A DNA stretch of 64,000 nucleotides, taken from a virus. The stretch spans positions 64,001-128,000 of IMG/VR virus record IMGVR_UViG_3300047557_001530. The stretch is one strand, 5' to 3'. Shown piece after piece: positions 40,927 through 64,000 of the stretch. A program made the translations under genes and the position numbers. The stretch's first letter is position 1. Each line of letters starts with the position of its first letter. Below the pieces are notes generated by a model. The model did not search any database. It had not been told where the DNA came from and saw nothing but the letters and a program-made list of their open reading frames with translations.

Positions 40927-43900
40927 ATGTCTAGACTAAGAGCTGATAGAGTTGTCAACAAAAATGCAAATGGTCCTTTTGAAGCAAGTGAAGGTATTAA
41001 AATACCATTAAATAAATCAATTACTATTGGAACTGATAGTGGTAGCACTGGGGACTTTTTAAAAAAATTAGGTAATAGTTTAGAATGGGGTAGTATTCCT
41101 CCCGCATCTCAAGCAGAACTTGGATTAGTTTATATTGGATCTGGATTAAATGTAGATGAAAACGGATTACTTACCACGCAATTTGATGGCACTCTTGGTG
41201 ATTTGCAAGATGTTGATATAACTACAGATCCTCCAGTTATAGGGCAAGTTTTAAAATGGAATGGTACTAAATGGGTTCCTAATACAGATGCAGTTTTTTC
41301 TGGAGACTATCTAGACTTAATCAATTTACCCGAATTAACTTTAAATGCTATAACTGAAAATGGTAATGCCACGTTGAATGAAATTCTTATTGGTGGGTTG
41401 GGAGTTTATGATCCTACTAATACAGATAGAAATAGTTTTTATGAATGGAGCGGTGATACTTATAATCAATATATTGAGACATTAACTAATCTAGGTAAAT
41501 ATAATATTACCATTGATGGTAATACAATTCTTTATGTTCATACCAAATCTGGGGATAATAATCCAGGTGTTGGAATCAATAAAGTTCCTGCGTTTAAAGG
41601 TCTTGATGTAGCAGGTAATTTTGGATTGAATGGTAGTATTCATATTAATGAAAGTATTAGATATGTACAATCATTGGTTCCAGAATCTACTGCTACCAAT
41701 ATCGATTTAGGATCAACTACTAGATTGTGGAGATCTGGATATTTTCAAACTAGTGTATTGATTGGTTCTGGCACAGATACTGGAACAGCCAATCAAAAAC
41801 TTCAAGTTACTGGTGGTGCTTATGTTTCTGATAATGTAGGTATAGGATACACAGCACCAACAGATAAGTTGGCAGTTAATGGCAATGAATATGTTAATGG
41901 AAACATTACTTTAACTGGCGAACTTCGTGGTCCTTCTGTATTTGTAATTGATCCAGCGGTAGTTGGAAACAATACAGGAACAGTTCAAATTAAAGGTGAT
42001 CTTCAAGTTGATGGAACGACCACCACAATTAATTCTACGATTACAAGTATTGCTGACCCTATCGTAGAACTAAGAAGAGGCAATTCTTTATTAGGTGCTG
42101 ATGGTGGCATTCAAGTTAACTTAACGACCAATGGCACTGGCACTGTTACTTCATACCAGAGAGTACAATGGAACAATAGCAATACTCGCTGGGAAACAAC
42201 TGACGGCACTACACCAAAACCAATTGTTAATACTGTAGATAACTTTACTGTTGGTGGTACATTTACTTTTAACAATAACGTCACTTTTGGTGACGTAGTA
42301 ACTGACACTATTACAGTAAACTCACAGTTTGTAAATGGAACTAAGCTTAGAACTGCACAAAATATAAGCAACACTCTTGCATTGGCAGCATATGATGTTG
42401 ATGGAACATCCTATACAGATTTAATTACATTAACTGCATCTAATACACCAACACTAACACTGGTTTCTACTGGAGTTGGTTCTATTAACAACATGAACAT
42501 CGGTGCTACTACAAGAGCTACTGGTGCGTTCACAACTCTAGATGCTAATAGCACAACAACGATCAATCCAGCAAACGCTAACGTATCTATTACTCCTTCT
42601 GGAACTGGAGTTTTAACAATTTCTTCTGGTGCAGTTGGTTCAATTAATAATGTAAATATCGGTGCCACCACTAGAGGCACTGGTGCTTTCACAACTCTAG
42701 ATGCTAACGGTACTGTTATTCTGGGAGATGCTTCTGCAGATACAGTTACTGTAAATGGAACTTCTACGTTTAATGCTGATGTTACCTTAAATACTAATCT
42801 TACTATAGGAAATGCTGATACTGATACAGTCACTATTTCTTCTCAATTTGCTGCAAGTACCCAACTTAAAACTTCCAAGGGAACAAATGAAACATTAAAT
42901 ATTGCAGCTTATGATGTAGATGGAACTGCGTATACTAATTTAATTACTTTAACTGCAGCGAATAATCCTTTACTAACAATTAGTTCTGTTGCTACAGGTA
43001 CAATTAATAACATGAGCATCGGTGCATCTACTAGAAGCACTGGTGCTTTTACTACATTGCAAGCAAATAGCACCACCACAATTAACCCAGCAAACGCTAA
43101 CGTATCTATTACTCCTTCAGGAACTGGGGTTTTAACTATTTCTTCTGGTGCTGTAGGTGCTATTGACAATGTAAATATCGGTGCCAGCACTAGAGGTACT
43201 GGTGCATTTACAACATTAAATGCTAATGGTGATGTTACTCTCGGTGATGCATCAACTGATAACGTAACAGTAAATGCAACTTCCACATTCAATTCTAGCG
43301 TTACTTTATCTGGTGTAACTTCTAATTTAATTGTTGGAGGTGAACTTCGTGGTCCTTCTGTATTTGTAATTGATCCTGCTGTTGTTGGTGATGATACAGG
43401 TCTTGTCAGAATTAAAGGTAATCTTGAAGTTCTTGGTACAACCACAACTATTAACTCAACAGTAACTACAATTGCAGATCCTTTCCTTGAACTTCGTAGA
43501 GGTAATTCTTTAACCGCTGCGGATGGTGGTATTCAAGTTAATTTAACTACAGACGGTTCGGGAAATGTTACTTCATCTCAAACTATTCAATGGAATAATT
43601 CTTCATTGAGATGGGAAACTACCGATGGTACTACTGCAAAACCAATCGTTAATACAGTAGATAGTTTTACATTTGCGAGTTCTATTTCTTTTGATGCAAA
43701 CGTAACATTAGGCAATGCTGTATCTGATACGATTACTGTAAACTCACAGTTTGTAAATGGAACTCAATTTAGATCTTCGCAATCAAATGGCAACACACTT
43801 GCAATTGCTGCATATGATTTAGATGGAACTACTTATACTAATTTAATTACATTAACTGCATCTAATACTCCAACATTAACATTAGTTTCTACTGGTGTTG

Positions 43901-45441
43901 GTAGTATTGATAACATGAATATTGGTGCTACTACTAGAGGCACTGGTGCTTTTACAACATTAAGTGCCAACAATACCGTTAGCTTGTCTCCTGTTAATAA
44001 TAATGTAACTATTTCTCCTACAGGCACAGGAGTTTTGACGTTATCTTCTGGTGCTGTAGGAACTCTTGACAACGTAAACATTGGTACTACCACAAGAGGT
44101 ACTGGTGCATTTACTACTCTTAGTGCTAATGGTAATGTAATTCTAGGTGATGCTTCTGCGGATACTGTAACTATTAATGGAACAACAACCATCAATGCCC
44201 CACTAACATTTACAGGTGCTACATCACACTTAACATTAACTGGAGAATTACGTGGTCCAGCCACGTTTATTATTGACCCAGCAACTGTTGGTGATGACAC
44301 TGGAATAGTTCAAATTAAAGGAAATCTTGAAGTTCTTGGAACTACTACAACAATTAATTCTACAATCACTACTATTGCAGATCCAATTGTTGAACTTAGA
44401 AGAGGAAACTCTTTAACCGCTGCTGATGGTGGCATTCAAGTTAACTTAACAACAACTGGTGGCGGAGTAGTATCAACATATCAAAGAATTCAGTGGAACA
44501 ATACAAACACTCGTTGGGAAACTACTGATGGCACTACTGTAAAACCAATCGTCAACACAGTAGATAGCTTTACTTTTGCTAATACAATTAATTTTAACTC
44601 TAATGTAACTATTGGAGATGCTGTTTCTGATGTTATTACTATCAATTCTCAATTTGCAAATGGTTCAGAATTAAGAACAGGAACTTCTAGTGGCAATAAT
44701 TATTCTCTTGCAGCATATGACGTAGATGGTGCCGCTTATGCAGATTTAATTACCTTAACTGCATCTAATACACCAACTGTTAATATTATTTCTACTGGTG
44801 TTGGTACTATCGATAATATGAATATAGGTGCTACCACAAGAGGAACTGGGGCATTTACAACTTTAGATGCGAATAGTACAGTTGTATTATCTCCAGCAAA
44901 TGCTAATGTAACTATTTCGCCATCAGGAACTGGAACTGTTACAATTTCTCCAGCGGGTGGATTGACAATTGCTCCAGCTACATCACTATCTATCTCTCCT
45001 ACAGTGGTGGGAACTATCAACAATGTAAACATTGGTGCCACTACTAGAGGTACTGGTGCATTTACAACTTTAGATGCTAATGGTAATGTAACATTAGGAG
45101 ATGCTTCTGGTGATGCTATTAATATTAATGGTACTACTTTAGTAAATGCCCCTATGTCATTTACTGGGGCTGCTTCGCATCTTACTTTAACTGGAGAACT
45201 TCGTGGTCCAGCTTCATTTATCATTGATCCAGCTACAGTAGGAGATGATACAGGAACTGTTACAATTAGGGGTAGTTTAACAGTTAATGGTGTTAATACT
45301 GCAGATAGACTAAAAAATACTGCTGCTCCTGCAACTGCATCGTCTACAGGAACTGCTGGCGACATTAGATATGCTAGTGGATTCCTGTATGTTTGTGTTG
45401 CTACAAATACCTGGCAGAGAGTGGCGATTGCTACTTGGTAA
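40927..45441 (+). CDS. Long repeat-rich tail-fibre/adhesin-like protein (1504 aa)
   Basis: Late box upstream; T/G/N/S-rich; repeats ELRGPxxFxIDPAxVG and NIGATTRGTGAFTTL; C-terminal GTAGDIRY..YVCVATNTWQR fibre motif. Confidence 0.8.
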   Translation: MSRLRADRVVNKNANGPFEASEGIKIPLNKSITIGTDSGSTGDFLKKLGNSLEWGSIPPASQAELGLVYIGSGLNVDENGLLTTQFDGTLGDLQDVDITTDPPVIGQVLKWNGTKWVPNTDAVFSGDYLDLINLPELTLNAITENGNATLNEILIGGLGVYDPTNTDRNSFYEWSGDTYNQYIETLTNLGKYNITIDGNTILYVHTKSGDNNPGVGINKVPAFKGLDVAGNFGLNGSIHINESIRYVQSLVPESTATNIDLGSTTRLWRSGYFQTSVLIGSGTDTGTANQKLQVTGGAYVSDNVGIGYTAPTDKLAVNGNEYVNGNITLTGELRGPSVFVIDPAVVGNNTGTVQIKGDLQVDGTTTTINSTITSIADPIVELRRGNSLLGADGGIQVNLTTNGTGTVTSYQRVQWNNSNTRWETTDGTTPKPIVNTVDNFTVGGTFTFNNNVTFGDVVTDTITVNSQFVNGTKLRTAQNISNTLALAAYDVDGTSYTDLITLTASNTPTLTLVSTGVGSINNMNIGATTRATGAFTTLDANSTTTINPANANVSITPSGTGVLTISSGAVGSINNVNIGATTRGTGAFTTLDANGTVILGDASADTVTVNGTSTFNADVTLNTNLTIGNADTDTVTISSQFAASTQLKTSKGTNETLNIAAYDVDGTAYTNLITLTAANNPLLTISSVATGTINNMSIGASTRSTGAFTTLQANSTTTINPANANVSITPSGTGVLTISSGAVGAIDNVNIGASTRGTGAFTTLNANGDVTLGDASTDNVTVNATSTFNSSVTLSGVTSNLIVGGELRGPSVFVIDPAVVGDDTGLVRIKGNLEVLGTTTTINSTVTTIADPFLELRRGNSLTAADGGIQVNLTTDGSGNVTSSQTIQWNNSSLRWETTDGTTAKPIVNTVDSFTFASSISFDANVTLGNAVSDTITVNSQFVNGTQFRSSQSNGNTLAIAAYDLDGTTYTNLITLTASNTPTLTLVSTGVGSIDNMNIGATTRGTGAFTTLSANNTVSLSPVNNNVTISPTGTGVLTLSSGAVGTLDNVNIGTTTRGTGAFTTLSANGNVILGDASADTVTINGTTTINAPLTFTGATSHLTLTGELRGPATFIIDPATVGDDTGIVQIKGNLEVLGTTTTINSTITTIADPIVELRRGNSLTAADGGIQVNLTTTGGGVVSTYQRIQWNNTNTRWETTDGTTVKPIVNTVDSFTFANTINFNSNVTIGDAVSDVITINSQFANGSELRTGTSSGNNYSLAAYDVDGAAYADLITLTASNTPTVNIISTGVGTIDNMNIGATTRGTGAFTTLDANSTVVLSPANANVTISPSGTGTVTISPAGGLTIAPATSLSISPTVVGTINNVNIGATTRGTGAFTTLDANGNVTLGDASGDAININGTTLVNAPMSFTGAASHLTLTGELRGPASFIIDPATVGDDTGTVTIRGSLTVNGVNTADRLKNTAAPATASSTGTAGDIRYASGFLYVCVATNTWQRVAIATW
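41920..45290 (+). repeat. Nested internal tandem repeats of the fibre gene
   Basis: ELRGP module 4x (~41920, 43340, 44245, 45195); near-identical DNA such as CCAGCAAACGCTAACGTATCTATTACTCCTTC at ~42568 and ~43087. Confidence 0.85.
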
Positions 45442-56319: not shown

Positions 56320-57188
56320 TACTTGACTCTCTCTATGTCTTTTTTATCAGAACCTTTTACAATACGAATACCTTTTATTCTATCATTCCAATATTGCTCG
56401 ATCTCTTCCCAAACATATTCTTTAGGATATTCAATTCTTCCGCCCCCCTTCATAAGAACAAATTCTTCAACTGGAAGAAATATAGCAGTTTCCCATTCTT
56501 GTTTGGCAAGATCTAAGAATAAACTTTTACACCTTTTATTTAAATATTTATGAATAATCTTTTGAGGAATGTCTATTCTTCCTTCTTGTAATTTATTGAT
56601 AACTATTTGTCTTCGTTTTGGTTTTAGGTAATGTAAATTTGCCCCATAAAATTCTGAGCCGTGAACACTTAAAACATATACTAATGGATACTTATCGTAA
56701 TATGGTAGGCTTTGAGTCTCTGCTTGGTATTCGTAAAAGTATAAGTGACCAGGAAAAACTCTTCTTCTTAAAACATTTTGATCCTGATACACCAGAGCAT
56801 CAACAGACTCCATCTTTTGTTCGATGGTCATTCTATTGTTTTCTGTGGTATACTTATCCCCTATTGATCTTAACGCAGACTTATACCATGTGATACTTTT
56901 TGCTTCTCCTCCAGTAAGTTCTTTTATTTGTTCAAAAATAGTTTTATAATTTTTCTTTAAAAATTCTTGATAACCTTTCGTAGCTTTAACTGCTTCAGCA
57001 AGTTCCCTCATATCTTTATATGAGGAATATCTTTTTATACCATACTTAGAAGCTAAAGCACGAATTTGATCTCTAGTGTATGTGTCAGCAGAAAGACCTC
57101 CATCTAATTCGTGCCCTGTTAAATGACTCCATTTATCAACGTTGTCTTTTGCATTTGGTTTTGGCTTTAGATTATTCTTAGCTGCCAT
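56319..57188 (-). CDS. g2: DNA end protector gp2 with N-terminal extension
   Basis: PGHLYFYEY, LPYYDKYPLV, FYGANLHYL, HKYL, WETAIFLPVEEF. Confidence 0.85.
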   Translation of the reverse strand: MAAKNNLKPKPNAKDNVDKWSHLTGHELDGGLSADTYTRDQIRALASKYGIKRYSSYKDMRELAEAVKATKGYQEFLKKNYKTIFEQIKELTGGEAKSITWYKSALRSIGDKYTTENNRMTIEQKMESVDALVYQDQNVLRRRVFPGHLYFYEYQAETQSLPYYDKYPLVYVLSVHGSEFYGANLHYLKPKRRQIVINKLQEGRIDIPQKIIHKYLNKRCKSLFLDLAKQEWETAIFLPVEEFVLMKGGGRIEYPKEYVWEEIEQYWNDRIKGIRIVKGSDKKDIERVK

Positions 57189-57189
57189 G

Positions 57190-57627
57190 CTATACTCCTA
57201 AATGGTCTTCCGTGAGGATTAAAAATTTCATTTGTCTATCTTCACAGAAATCTTCTGCTGCTTCCCATTTAGCACGATTTTTTATGTATGTTAGAACTTC
57301 TCTTTTCCAAGCAGCGGTTTTTCTTTTTGGTTTTTCTGTAGGACCAGTAACTTGTTTCTTTGGCTTGACTTCTATTAGATATTTACTAACCCTACCATCT
57401 TTGCTTTTCACTTTAATATAAAAATCTGGATAGTATCTATGCACTCTGCCATCCGTAGGGCAACGGTAAGGAATAATTATTTCTTCACTACCCCATTCTA
57501 TAATACTATTGTTATTATCACAAAATACCATAAACTTTCTTTCCCACATGGAACGATAGATGATCCTTGTGGGGTTCCCCCTATATTTTTTGGGGTTAGT
57601 GGGTTTATAGATTCCAGAGTATGCCAT
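57190..57627 (-). CDS. g4: Head completion nuclease gp4
   Basis: MAYSGIYKPTNPKKYRG, YRSMWERKFM, WGSEE, YYPDF, EVKP, NRAKW. Confidence 0.95.
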   Translation of the reverse strand: MAYSGIYKPTNPKKYRGNPTRIIYRSMWERKFMVFCDNNNSIIEWGSEEIIIPYRCPTDGRVHRYYPDFYIKVKSKDGRVSKYLIEVKPKKQVTGPTEKPKRKTAAWKREVLTYIKNRAKWEAAEDFCEDRQMKFLILTEDHLGV

Positions 57628-57658
57628 AAATAAATATATCCCTCCGAGTATATTTAGA

Positions 57659-58363
57659 GTGGCAGGATCAATTACCAATTTCATAAATGCTATCGCTAAA
57701 AATGGTGGCATGTCCATGTCAAATGGATATGACATTGAGTTTGATCTTAGTGGAACGCAAATTCAAAGTGTTCTAAGTCAATACAGTATTACGTTGCCAA
57801 GTGCAAATGATTCTGGAAATCCTGGTGCTTTGATTAATATGTTTTGCGATGAAGCACAGTTACCAAATAGTCAAGCTGCTACTGGACAAATTAATGGTAG
57901 ATATTTGGGCGAGGGTGTCGTAAATTATCCTCACACAAAACTAGTAAGTGACTTTTCTTTGACATGGATGTGTGATGCTAATATGGCACCATACAAATTT
58001 TTAATGGCGTGGTATAATTATATTTTTAATGGCGTAGAAAATTCTAATAGCATAGAACAACAGTCTCCAGATAGTCTCAAAGAATTTAAGCAAAACGCCA
58101 AACCAAAACTTCCAAATCGCTCAACAAGATTACACTATCCAAAAGATTATCAAGCTACTTTAAGAATAGCTAAGACAGAAAAAGGAAATAACGCACCCAA
58201 TAGTAGGGTTCCATTAGTATATGTTATGGAACAATGCTATCCATATTCCGTAGATGCTGTTCCTCTTTCTTATGGAACATCACAATTAACTAGGGTTACT
58301 GCCAATTTTTATTATAGCAAGCATACAATTTTCTTTGCAGACGTTCGTTCATTTAAGGGATAA
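57659..58363 (+). CDS. Tail-tube-fold baseplate protein (gp54/gp19-like)
   Basis: FCDEAQLP, YPYSVDAVPLSYG, VTANFYY; divergent from g4. Confidence 0.75.
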   Translation: MAGSITNFINAIAKNGGMSMSNGYDIEFDLSGTQIQSVLSQYSITLPSANDSGNPGALINMFCDEAQLPNSQAATGQINGRYLGEGVVNYPHTKLVSDFSLTWMCDANMAPYKFLMAWYNYIFNGVENSNSIEQQSPDSLKEFKQNAKPKLPNRSTRLHYPKDYQATLRIAKTEKGNNAPNSRVPLVYVMEQCYPYSVDAVPLSYGTSQLTRVTANFYYSKHTIFFADVRSFKG

Positions 58364-58390: not shown

Positions 58391-59104
58391 ATGGCATTAC
58401 CTAAAATTGGTTATCCTACATTTGAACTGCAACTTCCTTCCAACGGCAAAACAATTAAGTACAGACCTTTTATAGTAAAAGAAGAAAAGGTTTTACTATT
58501 AGCACTTGAATCTGAAGACGAAGCCCAGATTAAAGATGCGGTAAAAAATTTAATTAAAAATTGTGTCATCACAAGAATCAAAGTTGATGAACTACCTGCT
58601 TTTGATTTAGAATATCTGTTCCTCAGAATCAGAGCAGCATCTGTTGGAGAAATTGTCACCATGAATGTTGTCTGCAAAGATGACAATGAAACTCAGGTTG
58701 AAGTTGCTATTAATTTAAATGAAGTTGAGGTCTTTAAGCCAGAAGGTCATGTGAATAAAATTATGATCGGTGATGATATGGGTATTGTTATGAAGTACCC
58801 AAGCATGGATAGATTTATTGATGCAGAATTTTTAAATAAAGATATTAAAACAGAAGAAGTATTTGAATTTATTGCTGATTCAATTGATCAAGTCTTCACA
58901 AAAGAAGATGTCTGGGATTCTTCCACAACGTCAAGAAAAGAAATGGTTGAGTGGGTGGAGACACTAACCAATAAACAGTTTGAAGACATTCAAAAATTTT
59001 ATGAGACAATGCCAAAACTACAGCATAAATTTACTGTGAAAAATCCAAAGACTGGACTTGAATCTGAATATGAAATCGAGGGTATGCAGAATTTTTTCGC
59101 ATAG
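58391..59104 (+). CDS. g26: Baseplate hub assembly protein gp26
   Basis: MALPKI, KYRPFIVKEEKVLL, FDLEYLFLRIRAASVGE, MKYP, EGMQNFF. Confidence 0.92.
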   Translation: MALPKIGYPTFELQLPSNGKTIKYRPFIVKEEKVLLLALESEDEAQIKDAVKNLIKNCVITRIKVDELPAFDLEYLFLRIRAASVGEIVTMNVVCKDDNETQVEVAINLNEVEVFKPEGHVNKIMIGDDMGIVMKYPSMDRFIDAEFLNKDIKTEEVFEFIADSIDQVFTKEDVWDSSTTSRKEMVEWVETLTNKQFEDIQKFYETMPKLQHKFTVKNPKTGLESEYEIEGMQNFFA

Positions 59105-59283
59105 CACTCTTCCAAAATAGTTTGGAAGGGTATTTTAAAACCAATTTTGCCTTGATGCAGCATCATAAATACTCTTTGACAGAGATTGAAAGTCTCATGC
59201 CTTGGGAACGTGAAGTATATGTTTCTTTGTTATTGCAACACATACAAGAACAAGAAGCTAAACGGGAAGCAGCTAACAGGTAA
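59098..59283 (+). CDS. g51: gp51-like hub assembly domain, in the -1 frame of g26
   Basis: RIALFQNSLEGYFKTNFALMQHHKYSLTEIESLMPWEREVYVSLL; missed by the ORF track; first ATG only at 59155. Confidence 0.75.
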   Translation, partial: RIALFQNSLEGYFKTNFALMQHHKYSLTEIESLMPWEREVYVSLLLQHIQEQEAKREAANR

Positions 59284-62200
59284 TGAAAAATTCTGCCGAA
59301 AATAAATTTAATTTATCAAAAAGAGTAAGGCTACTCGGCAAAATTGTTGGCTATAATACTGCGTTTAATTTAGTTGGATCTAAAAAATTAGGGCAAGGTG
59401 CCTTTGGTACTGTATATTCTTCCAGAGGTGCTGCTGTTAAAGTTGCTCATGCTAAAGGTCAAAAGGAACTTAAGCATGAAGTTTCAATGCTTGAGCAATT
59501 AAAAGGTCTTAAGATAGCCCCACAGTTATTGGGCTCTGGAAAAGGATACGCTGCAATACAACAGTTTAAAGGTAATACATTAAATGATTCTGGAAATTTA
59601 AAAAGAATAAAAGAAGATCCAGTATTTGCTGATTATATTTTTAGAAAAATTGTTGAAGCAATGGGTGCATTGCACCGCAAAAATATTGCTCAAAAAGATT
59701 TACATGCAGGAAACATTTTTATTACTGATGACTACCAAGTAAAAATTCTTGATTATGGTCAGGCATCTAAAGGGTATCCTATAACATACTACGAAACATT
59801 TTTTGGTAGTAACTATGACCCTAAGCAAGGGGCGATAGGATTAATACATCATTTGTTTTTAAATACTCAATCGTATAAAACATATAAGAGAATATTAATT
59901 AATGCAATAAGAATTATATGCAAAAAGAAAGGAATTAGTTCTAAAATTGCATTGCAAAATTATGAAGCAATAGAAGGTAACGAAGAAAAGGAAACAGAAT
60001 ATTTTAATGTCTTAGAAAATTTAGCTCGTCACCCTGAGAATGATCAATCAGATGTAAGCAATTTTTACAGTGCTCTTGATACAGCATTAAAAATTAATAC
60101 AAAAAATCCTTTAAAGACAAAAAGAGTATCATCCAAAACTAGATTACTATCTACATCTTCTACGACAGCTAGAAAAATAAATCAAAAGTATTCATTGAAA
60201 GGAACTATTCCACAAGCATCTGAAGGTGGAGTATTCTCTGGACCAGAAAGTGGCTATCCAGTTATACTACATGGCACCGAAGCTGTCGTTCCATTGGATG
60301 ATCTTAACATACCTCCAGCAAGATATATTCAAGGGCAAGCTGGTGTTTGGGAGCTAGAATTTGAATCAGTTCTAGATCATGCTATTTACTTTGCTGGCAA
60401 GTCTCCATTCCCCAAAGGTGCTAAACAAGCAGAAATACTAGATTGGTTGCAGGATACTTTAGGTATTACCTGGAAAGATATTTCTGAACATCGTGATAAA
60501 ATTATGGATACGATACGTCAGCTAACCCCTGACGCATGGGAAGGAGGCAACTATCCATATTTACATATCCCTAGAGTCGATCCTGATTTTGAAATTGAAA
60601 CTTATGCAGATGCTGATGAAGAAGAGCCAGATGATCTTGATGATTTATTAAATGAAATACGAGATGAAGATGAAGACGAAGATGAGGCTGAAGGTTTAGA
60701 TGAATTACTTGATTTAATAAGGGATACATCTGTTTCTGATACAGAAGAAAAAGAAACAGAGAAAAAGATAGAACAAGCAAACGATATTGCTGAAGACATT
60801 CAGATTGATCCAGATGTTTTATCTGATCTTCCCCCAAGTTTGCAAGCATCTTTAGTTAAAGTAATTAATAGAAAAACAGGTGCTACTATTAATGCTGGTG
60901 ATAAAAAAGAAACAACATCTGCAATTACTAACACTAAAATATACAGATTTTTAACAAATAATTTATTAAAAATTGAAGGGCAATTAGATTCTATTAATGC
61001 TTCTATCAAAGAACAAAATATTTTACTGCAAACTAATTTAGATTTAAATCTAAAAACATTGCAATCGGTAGAAGAACAGGATGCATTGTTAGAAAGAAAA
61101 CTTGATACCATATTAGATCTTTATACTAATCAAACTTCTTTAATTAAAAAATACGAAGAAGATTTAAAGAGACAAGCAACTGAAGCTAGGTTAGAACAAC
61201 AAAGAGATTCTGCATTTACTACTGGATTCACTGACGTTGGTGGGCATACATTAGATTCAAATAGTTTACTCGGCAGATTGGTTAAATTTTTTGGTAAAAA
61301 AATAGCTGTAAAATTGTGGAAATTTTTACCATTAGCTATTAGATCAAGGGCTAAACTTTTAGGCAAAGCATTACGTCCAGGTAAACTACTTGGTAAAGTA
61401 GCTCAAAGAATAGCGGCAAAGAAAGCAGCAGACAAAGCAACTCAAAAAGCAACACAAAAATTTGTTGCAAAAGGTTTTGAACATATAGCATTACCAGCAT
61501 TAAAATCTGCTGACAATGTTGCTGCTAAAGGAGTACAAAAATCTGGCGGCAATTTATTGCAGAGAGCTTTGAGCAGTTCTGTAGTTCAAAAAGCATTGGT
61601 TAAAAAACTTGGTAAAGAAGGTGCAGAAAAACTTACAGTTAAGTTAGCAGCTAAATTAATTCCTGGTGTTGCTACGGCATATGGATTAGGAGAAGGTTTA
61701 GCTAGAATAATGATGGGTGATGTCAAGGGTGGATTCTTATCATTTGGTAGTGCAATACCTGTAGCTGGATATGGATTCGCTGCGGTGGATGTCTTGCGAG
61801 ACATTGATGTGGCTGCATACACGAAACATATTGAAGGACCAGCAATGTCTGGTAAACTTGGCGATGAACAGTTTGCTGCGTTCATTGCAGAGGCATTGGG
61901 AGTTACTGAAAATCAGTATGAAACAGGAACATTGAGTGCTAAACCTGGAGTTGCTATGCTTCATGGTACAGAATTGATTGTGGATAAAAATCAATCAGAA
62001 CAAATGAATCCAATGGCTATTGTTGGGGGCAGTTTATTAGCAGCAACAACAAATTATATTAACAGCATGGGTCCTCTCGCAGCATCTATAGCTCCTACAT
62101 TTAAGCAAGTTGCTGCTCCAATTGCAGAAGAATATGGTATTCCTAAAACATTTACACAAACAAAAGTTGGTGGAGCTTTACCTAATTTAAGTCAAGAACT

Positions 62201-63701
62201 TAAGAGAATAAAAGATAAAAGAAAACAAACACCAGAAGAAGAGCTTGAAGGCATTGAAAAAGATTTATTAGAGACACAGAATTCAGAATCATTTGCAGAA
62301 AAATTATTAAAGATATTGGATCCTCAAGGAAGATTCCAAGAGTTACTTAAAAATATAAACAATCGTCCTACTCCAACAGTCGATGGAGATTCTTTAATGG
62401 CTGAAGGTGGTTATGCCGTAGAAGCATCGGATGTTGGGGATAAATTTGGTGATAGAGGAGGAAAGCATAAAGGAATTGATATTGCTAGTAGCAAATTTAA
62501 AATGGGAACACCTATATCAATAATTAAACCTGGAGTTGTTGAGGATATTGGAAAACTTTCTGATGGAACTGGAGATCCTGGTGGATGGGGGAATTTTGTT
62601 GTTGTTAAACATGATGATGGATTATATTCTTTATATGGTCATTTGAGTGAAGTTAATGCAACAAAAGGACAAAGATTAGAACCATCTGCGAATGGAGTTT
62701 TCCCTGTTATCGGTAAAATTGGTAGCACAGGAAGATCGTCTGGTGCTCATTTGCACTTAGAAGTTGGAACTGGTTGGACAGGAGGAACTTTAAAAGGACA
62801 TATAAATCCACTTCCTATTGTAAATCAATTGATGCGTGGGGGCGGAAATATTAGAAAAGTTGATAGACCAACTGGAACACCAGTAAAAGTTGAAGGTCTT
62901 GGCAAACAAGGTGTTATGGCTAATAAGAATTTTGGTTCTACTTCTGGCGTAGGATCAAAAGGATATTTAATTGTTCCTGGTCATGCTGCTGGAGGAGGAG
63001 CACCTGGAGAAGCAGCTTTAGTTAAACAATTAGCACAAAATGCATACAGCAACTTAAAGCAAAAATATCCTGATGCAAACATTAAATATGTTGATGTAAA
63101 TTCTATGTTTGAAGATACTGAAGCTGGTTTTAATAAACAAAAGCAATGGTATAAAAAAATGGAGCAAGAAGGATGGGAAGTATTAGAAGTTCACATGGAT
63201 GCATCAATGGAATCTGGACAAGGAAGTGGACGAGGAGTTATTGTTCCTAAAGGAGAATTAAACGCAGTAGAAAAACATTTTGCAGAAAACTTTGGAGCAT
63301 TTCCTAGAGGGCATAGAGATCTAGCAGCACCAAATAGAGGAGCTAGTATTTTTGAATTAGGTAATATGTCTCCAGAGTTGCAAAGATCTGTTCAATCAGG
63401 ACAAGTAACAAAACAACAGTTAGATGCATTAACTTCTCCTTTTGAAAGATCTATTGCTGCTGGGTTAAATTTACAATCAATCACTCCTCCATCTGGTCAA
63501 CGACAAAGATTTGAATCGATGCAAGGTAAAGACAAAGATGCAGGCACTAAGCATTTAATCGTTAATCAAGCGACAAGACCTGCGGTTGGTGGTCAAGGAT
63601 CACAAAATATTACTTTTGTCCCTATGGGTTCTGGTAGATGGAGAACAGAAAATGAATACTCGGACACTATCAGAAGTCTTATTATGTCTAGATTACGATA
63701 A
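59283..63701 (+). CDS. Tape-measure/hub-like multidomain protein: Ser/Thr kinase + acidic/helical region + M23 peptidase + Amidase_3
   Basis: LGQGAFGTVY/AVK/E/KDLHAGN/DYG; LHGTE motif x2; HKGID..YGHL..HLHLEV; PGH..E..EVHMD..FELG. Confidence 0.85.
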   Translation: MKNSAENKFNLSKRVRLLGKIVGYNTAFNLVGSKKLGQGAFGTVYSSRGAAVKVAHAKGQKELKHEVSMLEQLKGLKIAPQLLGSGKGYAAIQQFKGNTLNDSGNLKRIKEDPVFADYIFRKIVEAMGALHRKNIAQKDLHAGNIFITDDYQVKILDYGQASKGYPITYYETFFGSNYDPKQGAIGLIHHLFLNTQSYKTYKRILINAIRIICKKKGISSKIALQNYEAIEGNEEKETEYFNVLENLARHPENDQSDVSNFYSALDTALKINTKNPLKTKRVSSKTRLLSTSSTTARKINQKYSLKGTIPQASEGGVFSGPESGYPVILHGTEAVVPLDDLNIPPARYIQGQAGVWELEFESVLDHAIYFAGKSPFPKGAKQAEILDWLQDTLGITWKDISEHRDKIMDTIRQLTPDAWEGGNYPYLHIPRVDPDFEIETYADADEEEPDDLDDLLNEIRDEDEDEDEAEGLDELLDLIRDTSVSDTEEKETEKKIEQANDIAEDIQIDPDVLSDLPPSLQASLVKVINRKTGATINAGDKKETTSAITNTKIYRFLTNNLLKIEGQLDSINASIKEQNILLQTNLDLNLKTLQSVEEQDALLERKLDTILDLYTNQTSLIKKYEEDLKRQATEARLEQQRDSAFTTGFTDVGGHTLDSNSLLGRLVKFFGKKIAVKLWKFLPLAIRSRAKLLGKALRPGKLLGKVAQRIAAKKAADKATQKATQKFVAKGFEHIALPALKSADNVAAKGVQKSGGNLLQRALSSSVVQKALVKKLGKEGAEKLTVKLAAKLIPGVATAYGLGEGLARIMMGDVKGGFLSFGSAIPVAGYGFAAVDVLRDIDVAAYTKHIEGPAMSGKLGDEQFAAFIAEALGVTENQYETGTLSAKPGVAMLHGTELIVDKNQSEQMNPMAIVGGSLLAATTNYINSMGPLAASIAPTFKQVAAPIAEEYGIPKTFTQTKVGGALPNLSQELKRIKDKRKQTPEEELEGIEKDLLETQNSESFAEKLLKILDPQGRFQELLKNINNRPTPTVDGDSLMAEGGYAVEASDVGDKFGDRGGKHKGIDIASSKFKMGTPISIIKPGVVEDIGKLSDGTGDPGGWGNFVVVKHDDGLYSLYGHLSEVNATKGQRLEPSANGVFPVIGKIGSTGRSSGAHLHLEVGTGWTGGTLKGHINPLPIVNQLMRGGGNIRKVDRPTGTPVKVEGLGKQGVMANKNFGSTSGVGSKGYLIVPGHAAGGGAPGEAALVKQLAQNAYSNLKQKYPDANIKYVDVNSMFEDTEAGFNKQKQWYKKMEQEGWEVLEVHMDASMESGQGSGRGVIVPKGELNAVEKHFAENFGAFPRGHRDLAAPNRGASIFELGNMSPELQRSVQSGQVTKQQLDALTSPFERSIAAGLNLQSITPPSGQRQRFESMQGKDKDAGTKHLIVNQATRPAVGGQGSQNITFVPMGSGRWRTENEYSDTIRSLIMSRLR

Positions 63702-63723: not shown

Positions 63724-64000
63724 ATGGCAGCTTTTACAGAAGGGTTTTCATATCATGGAAATAATATTGATGTAGTATCTAAAGTTATGGCCGCTCGTTC
63801 GATGGCGAAGGCTGAACGAGAGTATGCTGAAAAAACTTTAGCTGCCCAACAAAAAAATGTCCCCGATGATGATAAATTAAAGCTTGAAGATTTTGGTATT
63901 AAGAAAGGATACTTCTTTCGCAAAGCATTAAAGCATGAATTTGGTGGCGATTATTATTTAAGAAAAAAAGAAAAAATTTCTGACATTGTTTCTAGGGTTA
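63724..64000 (+). CDS. Next tail/baseplate-region protein (3' truncated)
   Basis: MAAFTEGFSY... open to window end; GATAAATA upstream. Confidence 0.7.
   Translation, partial: MAAFTEGFSYHGNNIDVVSKVMAARSMAKAEREYAEKTLAAQQKNVPDDDKLKLEDFGIKKGYFFRKALKHEFGGDYYLRKKEKISDIVSRV

Follow-up and report, generated by a model that had tools for sequence, protein, structure and literature searches.

Protein kinases have been reported in the virions of the cyanomyoviruses S-CBWM1, S-CREM2, S-CRM01 and S-TIM5, and their entry into the host cell has already been proposed (PMC10665884). In Thermus phage P23-45, an RNA polymerase is present in the virion within the full-length protein gp96, and transcribes phage genes in the cell (PMC10770324). 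Kinases have also been described in polyvalent proteins of Verrucomicrobia and Bacteroidetes prophages, in an account that mentions neither tape measures nor cyanophages (Iyer et al., 2017; PMC5512222). Here, an open reading frame (ORF) is described in which a protein-kinase-like (PKL) domain is fused to a protein of the tape-measure slot. It lies at positions 59283–63701 (+) of a 64,000-nucleotide stretch (hereafter the window), which comprises positions 64,001 to 128,000 of IMG/VR virus record IMGVR_UViG_3300047557_001530. The ingredients of this fusion are known singly, as packaged cyanophage kinases, a tape-measure-fused enzyme and polyvalent-protein kinases; their combination seems to be undescribed. 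A literature search at title and abstract level, with most subscription journals outside its range, returned no report of a PKL kinase cassette fused to a tape-measure-slot protein. A preceding sequence-only reading of the locus had likewise known of no described case; cases close to it have, however, been published (PMC10665884, PMC10770324, PMC5512222).

An atypical kinase fused to a tail protein

The ORF is unbroken, and its product is laid out as follows (window coordinates):

59283–63701 (+), tape-measure-slot protein with N-terminal kinase, 1472 aa, encoded by the first gene of the paralogous pair that follows g51
59283–60098 (+), protein-kinase-like domain, aa 1–272, from Pfam, model and conserved residues
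60090–60215 (+), basic Ser/Thr-rich linker, aa 270–311, with 10 K/R and 0 D/E
60216–60296 (+), Gly-Gly...LHG.E motif at the end of the kinase cassette, sharing 74% identity with its counterpart in the Sf-FR1 second-gene paralog
60294–60602 (+), module C, a small folded domain, aa 338–440, optional in the family
60603–60812 (+), very acidic stretch, aa 441–510, 47% D/E
60813–61892 (+), coiled-coil-like and A/G/K-rich amphipathic backbone, aa 511–870, from sequence composition, the coiled coil being judged from sequence
62463–62768 (+), M23 peptidase, aa 1061–1162, Pfam E 6.7e-17
62958–63467 (+), probable Zn amidase (Amidase_3-like), aa 1226–1395, from invariant motif residues, with no Pfam match

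The N-terminal region matches Pfam Pkinase at aa 33–176 (E 9.5e-12; score 45.3 bits, cut-off 31.7), the match stopping at position 160 of the 263-position profile. A structure model of aa 1–285, built from 24 homologues, reaches a pLDDT of 92 and contains an N-terminal helix pair, the Gly loop, K53, E66, D139-x-H141-x-x-N144, D157-Y-G159 and a helical C-lobe. Profile and model thus bear out the kinase fold that had been proposed from motifs in the first ~200 aa, although the folded domain extends to about aa 270. A Foldseek structure search with the model returned kinases only (probability 1.0). The best match is RIO2 (Z 14.2, rmsd 4.0, 178 aligned residues), with RIO1 at Z 13.7, and casein kinase, PDK1 and the RNA kinase Ark1 (Z 13.2) tie with both. 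The PKL superfamily residues are all present, namely the beta3 Lys K53, the alphaC Glu E66, D139, N144 and the metal-binding D157. Across the 24 homologues, no variation is seen at G37, G39, G42, D139, H141, N144, D157, G159 and E171, and almost none at K53 and E66. By fold and residues, the domain is assigned to the PKL superfamily as a predicted enzyme.

The kinase is not of the Hanks type, because its catalytic loop, its missing activation segment and its place in the tree all differ. The loop reads D-L-H-A-G-N rather than HRDLKPxN, a helix starts six residues past DYG in place of an activation loop, and the fused kinases side with D-x-H-loop kinases in a tree that sets Hanks kinases apart at 99/97. 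It is an atypical kinase with a RIO-like fold. Of the "Hanks/RIO-type" label given by the sequence-only reading, the first half falls, and the second is qualified by the tie of RIO2 and RIO1 with other kinases. The ORF product has no RIO1 Pfam match, and one homologue has one.

The kinase core is the best-conserved portion of the whole protein, its dN/dS is about 0.2 (some 0.13–0.3), and none of the eight strain differences listed for the kinase changes an amino acid, a pattern that indicates purifying selection with catalytic residues kept intact. It bears on the idea of an artefact, or of a passenger domain without catalytic relevance, for which one could cite the replacement of the canonical catalytic-loop His by Gln in most family members, and a second-gene allele (L014) with a stop right after the cassette. 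Given that the catalytic Asp and Asn and the metal-binding Asp are invariant, that selection is purifying and that the domain recurs in independent assemblies, we regard this explanation as very improbable.

A protein is the likeliest substrate, as one option among several. A virion-delivered kinase could instead act on a small molecule, a lipid or lipopolysaccharide precursor, or an RNA end. The D-x-H-x-x-N loop without an activation loop would suit such a role, relatives give weak ABC1, APH and Kdo Pfam matches, Ark1 scores close to RIO2, and the literature calls relatives APH-like and ChoK-like (PMC10665884). On the other hand, Pkinase is the best Pfam family, the Gly loop is canonical, the top fold matches are protein kinases, and the 3–6 copies that would be injected seem to fit regulatory targets better than bulk metabolites. 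A non-protein substrate is therefore judged improbable. Among cultured phages, tblastn, fold search and tree point to the stand-alone kinases of S-CBWM1, S-CREM2, S-CRM01 and S-H34 as the closest kin; the tree does not order the groups within the D-x-H side, which comprises fused and stand-alone cyanophage kinases. The fused kinase is the sole one found in the record, which is ~88% complete. A scan of metagenome contigs with the kinase alignment gave generic kinases only (22–40% identity). Two related kinase domains occur together in a 1103-aa protein next to nblA on a probable cyanophage contig (L010:8001–11312).

The fusion is real. It is found in 22 other sequence clusters, 20 of them at 56–99% identity (proteins of 1425–1684 aa) and two at about 50%, and contigs from two other, independent studies run unbroken across 59162–62348; together these rule out an assembly chimera or a lost stop codon. 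More distant kinases of the same build are found at the N-terminus of the second slot gene in other lineages, where they precede other hydrolases. No cultured relative carries the fusion. The survey of homologs at this locus that had been suggested was made by a backbone search, which recovered 75 proteins. These include 49 close first-gene orthologues, and 18 of the 49 have the kinase, a share biased by the query.

On two backbone trees, kinase presence and absence takes 11 changes, at least seven and at least five of which are forced by well-supported branches. The kinase is thus an optional cassette at the N-terminus that has come or gone at least 5–7 times, and turnover of this kind is what one would expect from a conflict-driven accessory. 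Wherever the first gene carries it (23 of 23 cases), it occupies the extreme N-terminus of a string of small modules that spans about 180 to 815 aa before the coiled coil. Because the Gly-Gly...LHG.E motif closing the cassette leads directly, in several members, into the start used by kinase-less forms, it is suggested to be a likely recombination junction. A separate upstream kinase gene is absent from the one kinase-less relative that was checked, where g51 abuts the slot gene. In the L014 second-gene allele, a TAG directly follows the Gly-Gly motif (L014:8973–8975), and could represent an error, a pseudogene or a natural stand-alone form.

The sequence-only reading had overlooked two parts of the N-terminal region. 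The basic linker at aa 270–311 has the same character in homologues, being basic, acid-free and Ser/Thr-rich. Most family members have module C (model pLDDT 86), and one has two copies of it; a structure search with it gave nothing above Z 3.2, and neither a Pfam match nor a useful Atlas match was obtained. Some weak helix-turn-helix matches were given no weight.

The tape-measure slot

The virus record is 171 kb long and carries psbA, and DNA near-identical to the window occurs in freshwater metagenomes; no RNA data set is listed as containing the stretch, which speaks neither for nor against its expression. T4-like genes near the ORF include g32, g53, g48, g2, g4, a tube-like gene, g26 and g51, and the nearest cultured phage by gp26 comparison is Synechococcus phage Sf-FR1 (73%). 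The virus is a T4-like freshwater cyanomyophage. The gene order is tube-like gene, g26, g51, the kinase-fused ORF, a paralog of 852 aa, a 476-aa gene at the hub position, and gp5. The features surrounding the ORF in the window are:

57625–57632 (+), T4-type late-promoter-like site CATAAATA at the operon head, with the same site in 6 of 7 relatives
57659–58363 (+), gene for a tube-like protein, with which the operon opens
58391–59104 (+), g26 (hub/tail assembly chaperone), from a g26 match
59092–59098 (+), slippery heptamer T TTT TTC, from which the -1 frame opens into g51
59092–59283 (+), 63-aa segment resembling g51, read in the -1 frame, from a g51 match
63724–64000 (+), start of the second-gene paralog (852 aa), without kinase, running past the window end

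The late-promoter call is made because of positional conservation, exact TATAAATA counts within the window showing no excess over chance, and the operon with the kinase-fused gene is predicted to be expressed late. The heptamer at the end of g26 and the -1 frame into g51 are found at all 13 loci compared, including those of S-PM2, S-CAM3, S-CRM01 and S-CREM2. In phage lambda, the G/GT frameshift pattern precedes tape-measure genes. This arrangement suggests that cyanophage gp26 and gp51 are a G/GT-type chaperone pair, and the -1 frameshift may explain the short annotated gp51. Since the G/GT-type frameshift lies upstream, the ORF is placed in the tape-measure slot, in agreement with the position after g26/g51 noted earlier. 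It follows the tube gene and the frameshifted chaperone pair, and precedes hub and spike. By composition and motifs, its product also has a tape-measure-like body, with a long amphipathic stretch, a hydrophobic segment and distal wall hydrolases. The A/G/K-rich region spans aa 656–870, with one moderately hydrophobic segment near aa 784–835; both this region and the very acidic linker had been noted in the sequence-only reading. The backbone at aa 446–769 matches PHROG 11440. The hitherto unannotated genes that follow g51 in T4-like cyanophages are thereby recognised as a tape-measure slot, which has a chaperone pair of the G/GT type and, at either end, modules that can be swapped.

The S-CREM2 slot-gene products are present in its virion proteome, with 73 and 71 peptides; BLAST did not link their backbones to the kinase-fused protein. 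Tail lengths and slot proteins compare as follows:

S-CREM2, tail 418 nm, slot proteins of 1565 and 1456 aa
S-N03, tail 138 nm, slot proteins of 933 and 722 aa
S-H34, tail 129 nm, slot proteins of 936 and 735 aa
S-CRM01, tail 140–170 nm, single slot protein of 864 aa

Slot proteins are longest in the longest-tailed of these four phages, and the nm-per-residue ratio is not constant. Such inconsistent ratios could indicate that the protein is no ruler and is instead a paralogous lumen or hub cargo, that is, an ejection protein of the polyvalent type. This reading overlaps with others, and the kinase could keep the same role in it. It would also account for the one to three paralogs per slot, which swap hydrolases and kinases, and for an N-terminal part that differs by 600 aa among close relatives. 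It sits less well with the gene coming first after the G/GT-type chaperone pair, with the single slot gene of S-CRM01, and with the much greater length of both slot genes in the 418-nm-tailed phage; on balance, we consider it unlikely, though worth keeping in mind. The assignment to the tape-measure slot is well supported, and a ruler role for this protein is likely. On the contig of P0226, three paralog-like slot genes precede the hub, of 723, 1050 (kinase) and 602 (lysozyme). Elsewhere in the window, a 1504-aa ORF (40927–45441) has no Pfam match.

Of the two C-terminal wall hydrolases named in the sequence-only reading, the M23 peptidase is confirmed by Pfam. For the Zn amidase, H1234, E1243, H1304 and E1358 are invariant in 14 proteins, and their order fits the Zn ligands and catalytic Glu of Amidase_3, but aa 1226–1395 have no Pfam match and no PDB sequence match. 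An hhalign comparison of this region with the Pfam-positive alternative amidase is not significant (E 0.039), and the Atlas gives a weak lead to Amidase_3 (0.87). The two amidase types occupy the same slot and are mutually exclusive across the family, and in contigs of two other studies the M23-plus-amidase block (62348–63484) is swapped for a different block. The C-terminal domain is probably an Amidase_3-like Zn amidase.

Proposed packaging, delivery and timing

We propose that the protein is one of two paralogous tape-measure-type tail proteins, carrying exchangeable hydrolases at its C-terminal end and exchangeable cargo modules at its N-terminal end. It would be synthesised late and probably be held in an extended state by the g26 and g26-g51 chaperones, and virion assembly would place the kinase close to the head. 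In cyanophage A-1(L), it is the C-terminus of the tape measure that binds the baseplate (PMC10966104); with the same orientation, the hydrolases would lead and the kinase would lie at the head-proximal end. At infection, the hydrolases would work on the cell wall, and the kinase end would enter the cytoplasm beside the incoming DNA and then fold. Since the periplasm is without ATP, any action of the kinase at infection must be cytoplasmic. There it would phosphorylate host factors ahead of phage gene expression, DNA-near host proteins such as defence enzymes being the likeliest targets; nothing points to the photosynthesis regulators that had been suggested alongside them. An 80-aa Rho_N-like extension (weak Rho_N match) at the N-terminus of the gp2 DNA-end protector (56934–57188, −) shares 62–73% identity with an N-terminal module that is optional in the family and present in five tape-measure-slot proteins without a kinase, which hints that the N-terminal end of slot proteins meets DNA. 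Speculatively, the basic linker might steer the kinase in the way that the DNA-binding part of the T7 kinase directs it to nucleic-acid-binding proteins (PMC13645617). Drawing on other phages for the virion presence of slot proteins and related kinases, for tape-measure orientation and for an N-terminal enzyme at work, we infer the activity, packaging, delivery and substrate of this kinase; that it is packaged, delivered to the host cytoplasm and acts at infection is the reading we lean towards, with modest confidence.

Several points weigh against it. The lumen of a tail tube is about 4 nm wide. A folded domain of 270 aa on 3–6 chains cannot fit in it unless unfolded or outside, tape measures are frequently cleaved during assembly, and delivery would be limited to a few copies. 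The slot holds one to three paralogs whose length scales uncleanly with tail length, so that any of them may be the ruler. The D-x-H loop is common to small-molecule kinases, and the RNA kinase Ark1 ties in the fold search. No cultured phage has the fusion, and the S-CREM2 authors warn that virion kinases may be co-purified (PMC10665884).

The difficulties of fit and processing favour another explanation, in which the kinase does its work in the producer cell at a late stage. It would be fused for late expression, be cleaved off or active before assembly, and act on host proteins or virion parts, perhaps on its own linker. A late operon, the common processing of tape measures, the poor fit of a folded domain in the tube, and a Ser/Thr-rich linker with a conserved motif right behind the kinase would all agree with this. 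However, a stand-alone late gene would suffice for such a role, yet every one of the 23 first-gene kinases is fused, as are those of the second-gene lineages. Because close relatives manage without it, the kinase is dispensable and is not an assembly factor. Its stand-alone relatives, moreover, bear packaging-like signals. Late action is accordingly a minority prospect, which we think rather unlikely.

The packaging-like signals resemble the capsid-targeting sequence of T4, in which positions 4, 7 and 10 matter (PMC9026906). S-CRM01 g130 and S-CREM2 gp14 (ORF14) start with such a peptide (F4, F7, E10), which suggests that both are packaged in the head. The N-terminus of the ORF 59283–63701 product lacks this peptide (aromatic residues at 4 and 7, Glu at 10). 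A crude scan of its genome gave four unconvincing matches, and because the genome is ~88% complete, absence is not established. T4 capsid-targeting-like starts are also found in cluster C kinases and their neighbours (338–9832 in L110, which is S-CREM2; 4250–7426 in L020; 1951–7620 in L018), including proteins annotated as SAM hydrolase and Cas9-like nuclease; these probably form an unrecognised set of internal head proteins.

Extending the reading of a packaged, infection-time kinase, the head-proximal end of T4-like cyanophage tape measures may serve generally as a place for exchangeable effectors that are delivered next to the DNA end as it enters. The kinase would be kept unfolded and harmless in the producer cell and virion, refold on ejection and phosphorylate host defence proteins ahead of all phage transcription, as a pre-expression counterpart of the T7 kinase, and the same kinase group would take the head or the tail route in different cyanophages. 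This broader scheme is put forward tentatively, as possible and not as probable. The fusion ties the unexplained kinases of cyanophage virion proteomes to a structural way of entering the cell. Where kinase and tail protein form one covalent chain, the kinase could not be dismissed as co-purified in the way that stand-alone ones can, unless cleavage sets it free. Natural pairs of close relatives, one having the cassette and one lacking it, offer a direct way of seeing whether packaged kinases broaden host range or overcome defence in freshwater picocyanobacteria.

Comparison with known systems

The closest relatives are the cyanomyovirus virion kinases (PMC10665884), which belong to the same non-Hanks group and the same host group. 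The proteins of S-CBWM1 are termed APH/ChoK/RIO-like. All are stand-alone proteins of about 27–32% identity, whereas the fused kinase is a tail-protein cassette without a capsid-targeting-like peptide. In architecture, Thermus phage P23-45 gp96 is a parallel: the enzyme is N-terminal on a tape measure in which a metallopeptidase and membrane segments are found as well (PMC10770324). P23-45 is, however, a siphovirus with a conserved polymerase that acts on phage DNA, while the present locus has a contractile tail and an optional kinase that is swapped among close relatives.

Polyvalent proteins are likewise large and modular, are predicted to be delivered together with DNA, exchange cassettes, and in some cases contain kinase domains of the Ser/Thr/Tyr type (Iyer et al., 2017; PMC5512222). 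The kinase family described there has no C-terminal subdomain, a His-Asp insert and a Glu before strand 2; the fused kinase keeps its helical C-lobe, and has neither the insert nor that Glu. The T4 Alt protein and internal proteins resemble the proposed cargo in being host-modifying, virion-packaged, ejected into the cytoplasm and non-essential (PMC9026906). They are packaged in the head via a cleaved propeptide, and Alt is an ADP-ribosyltransferase. The T7 kinase gp0.7 and JSS1_004 disarm defences and are patchy among relatives (PMC13645617, PMC12345140), as the cassette is. They are expressed early and are not described as packaged, and they have a DPV motif and a shut-off domain, whereas the fused kinase has a DYG/DFG motif in place of DPV and no match to the shut-off domain.

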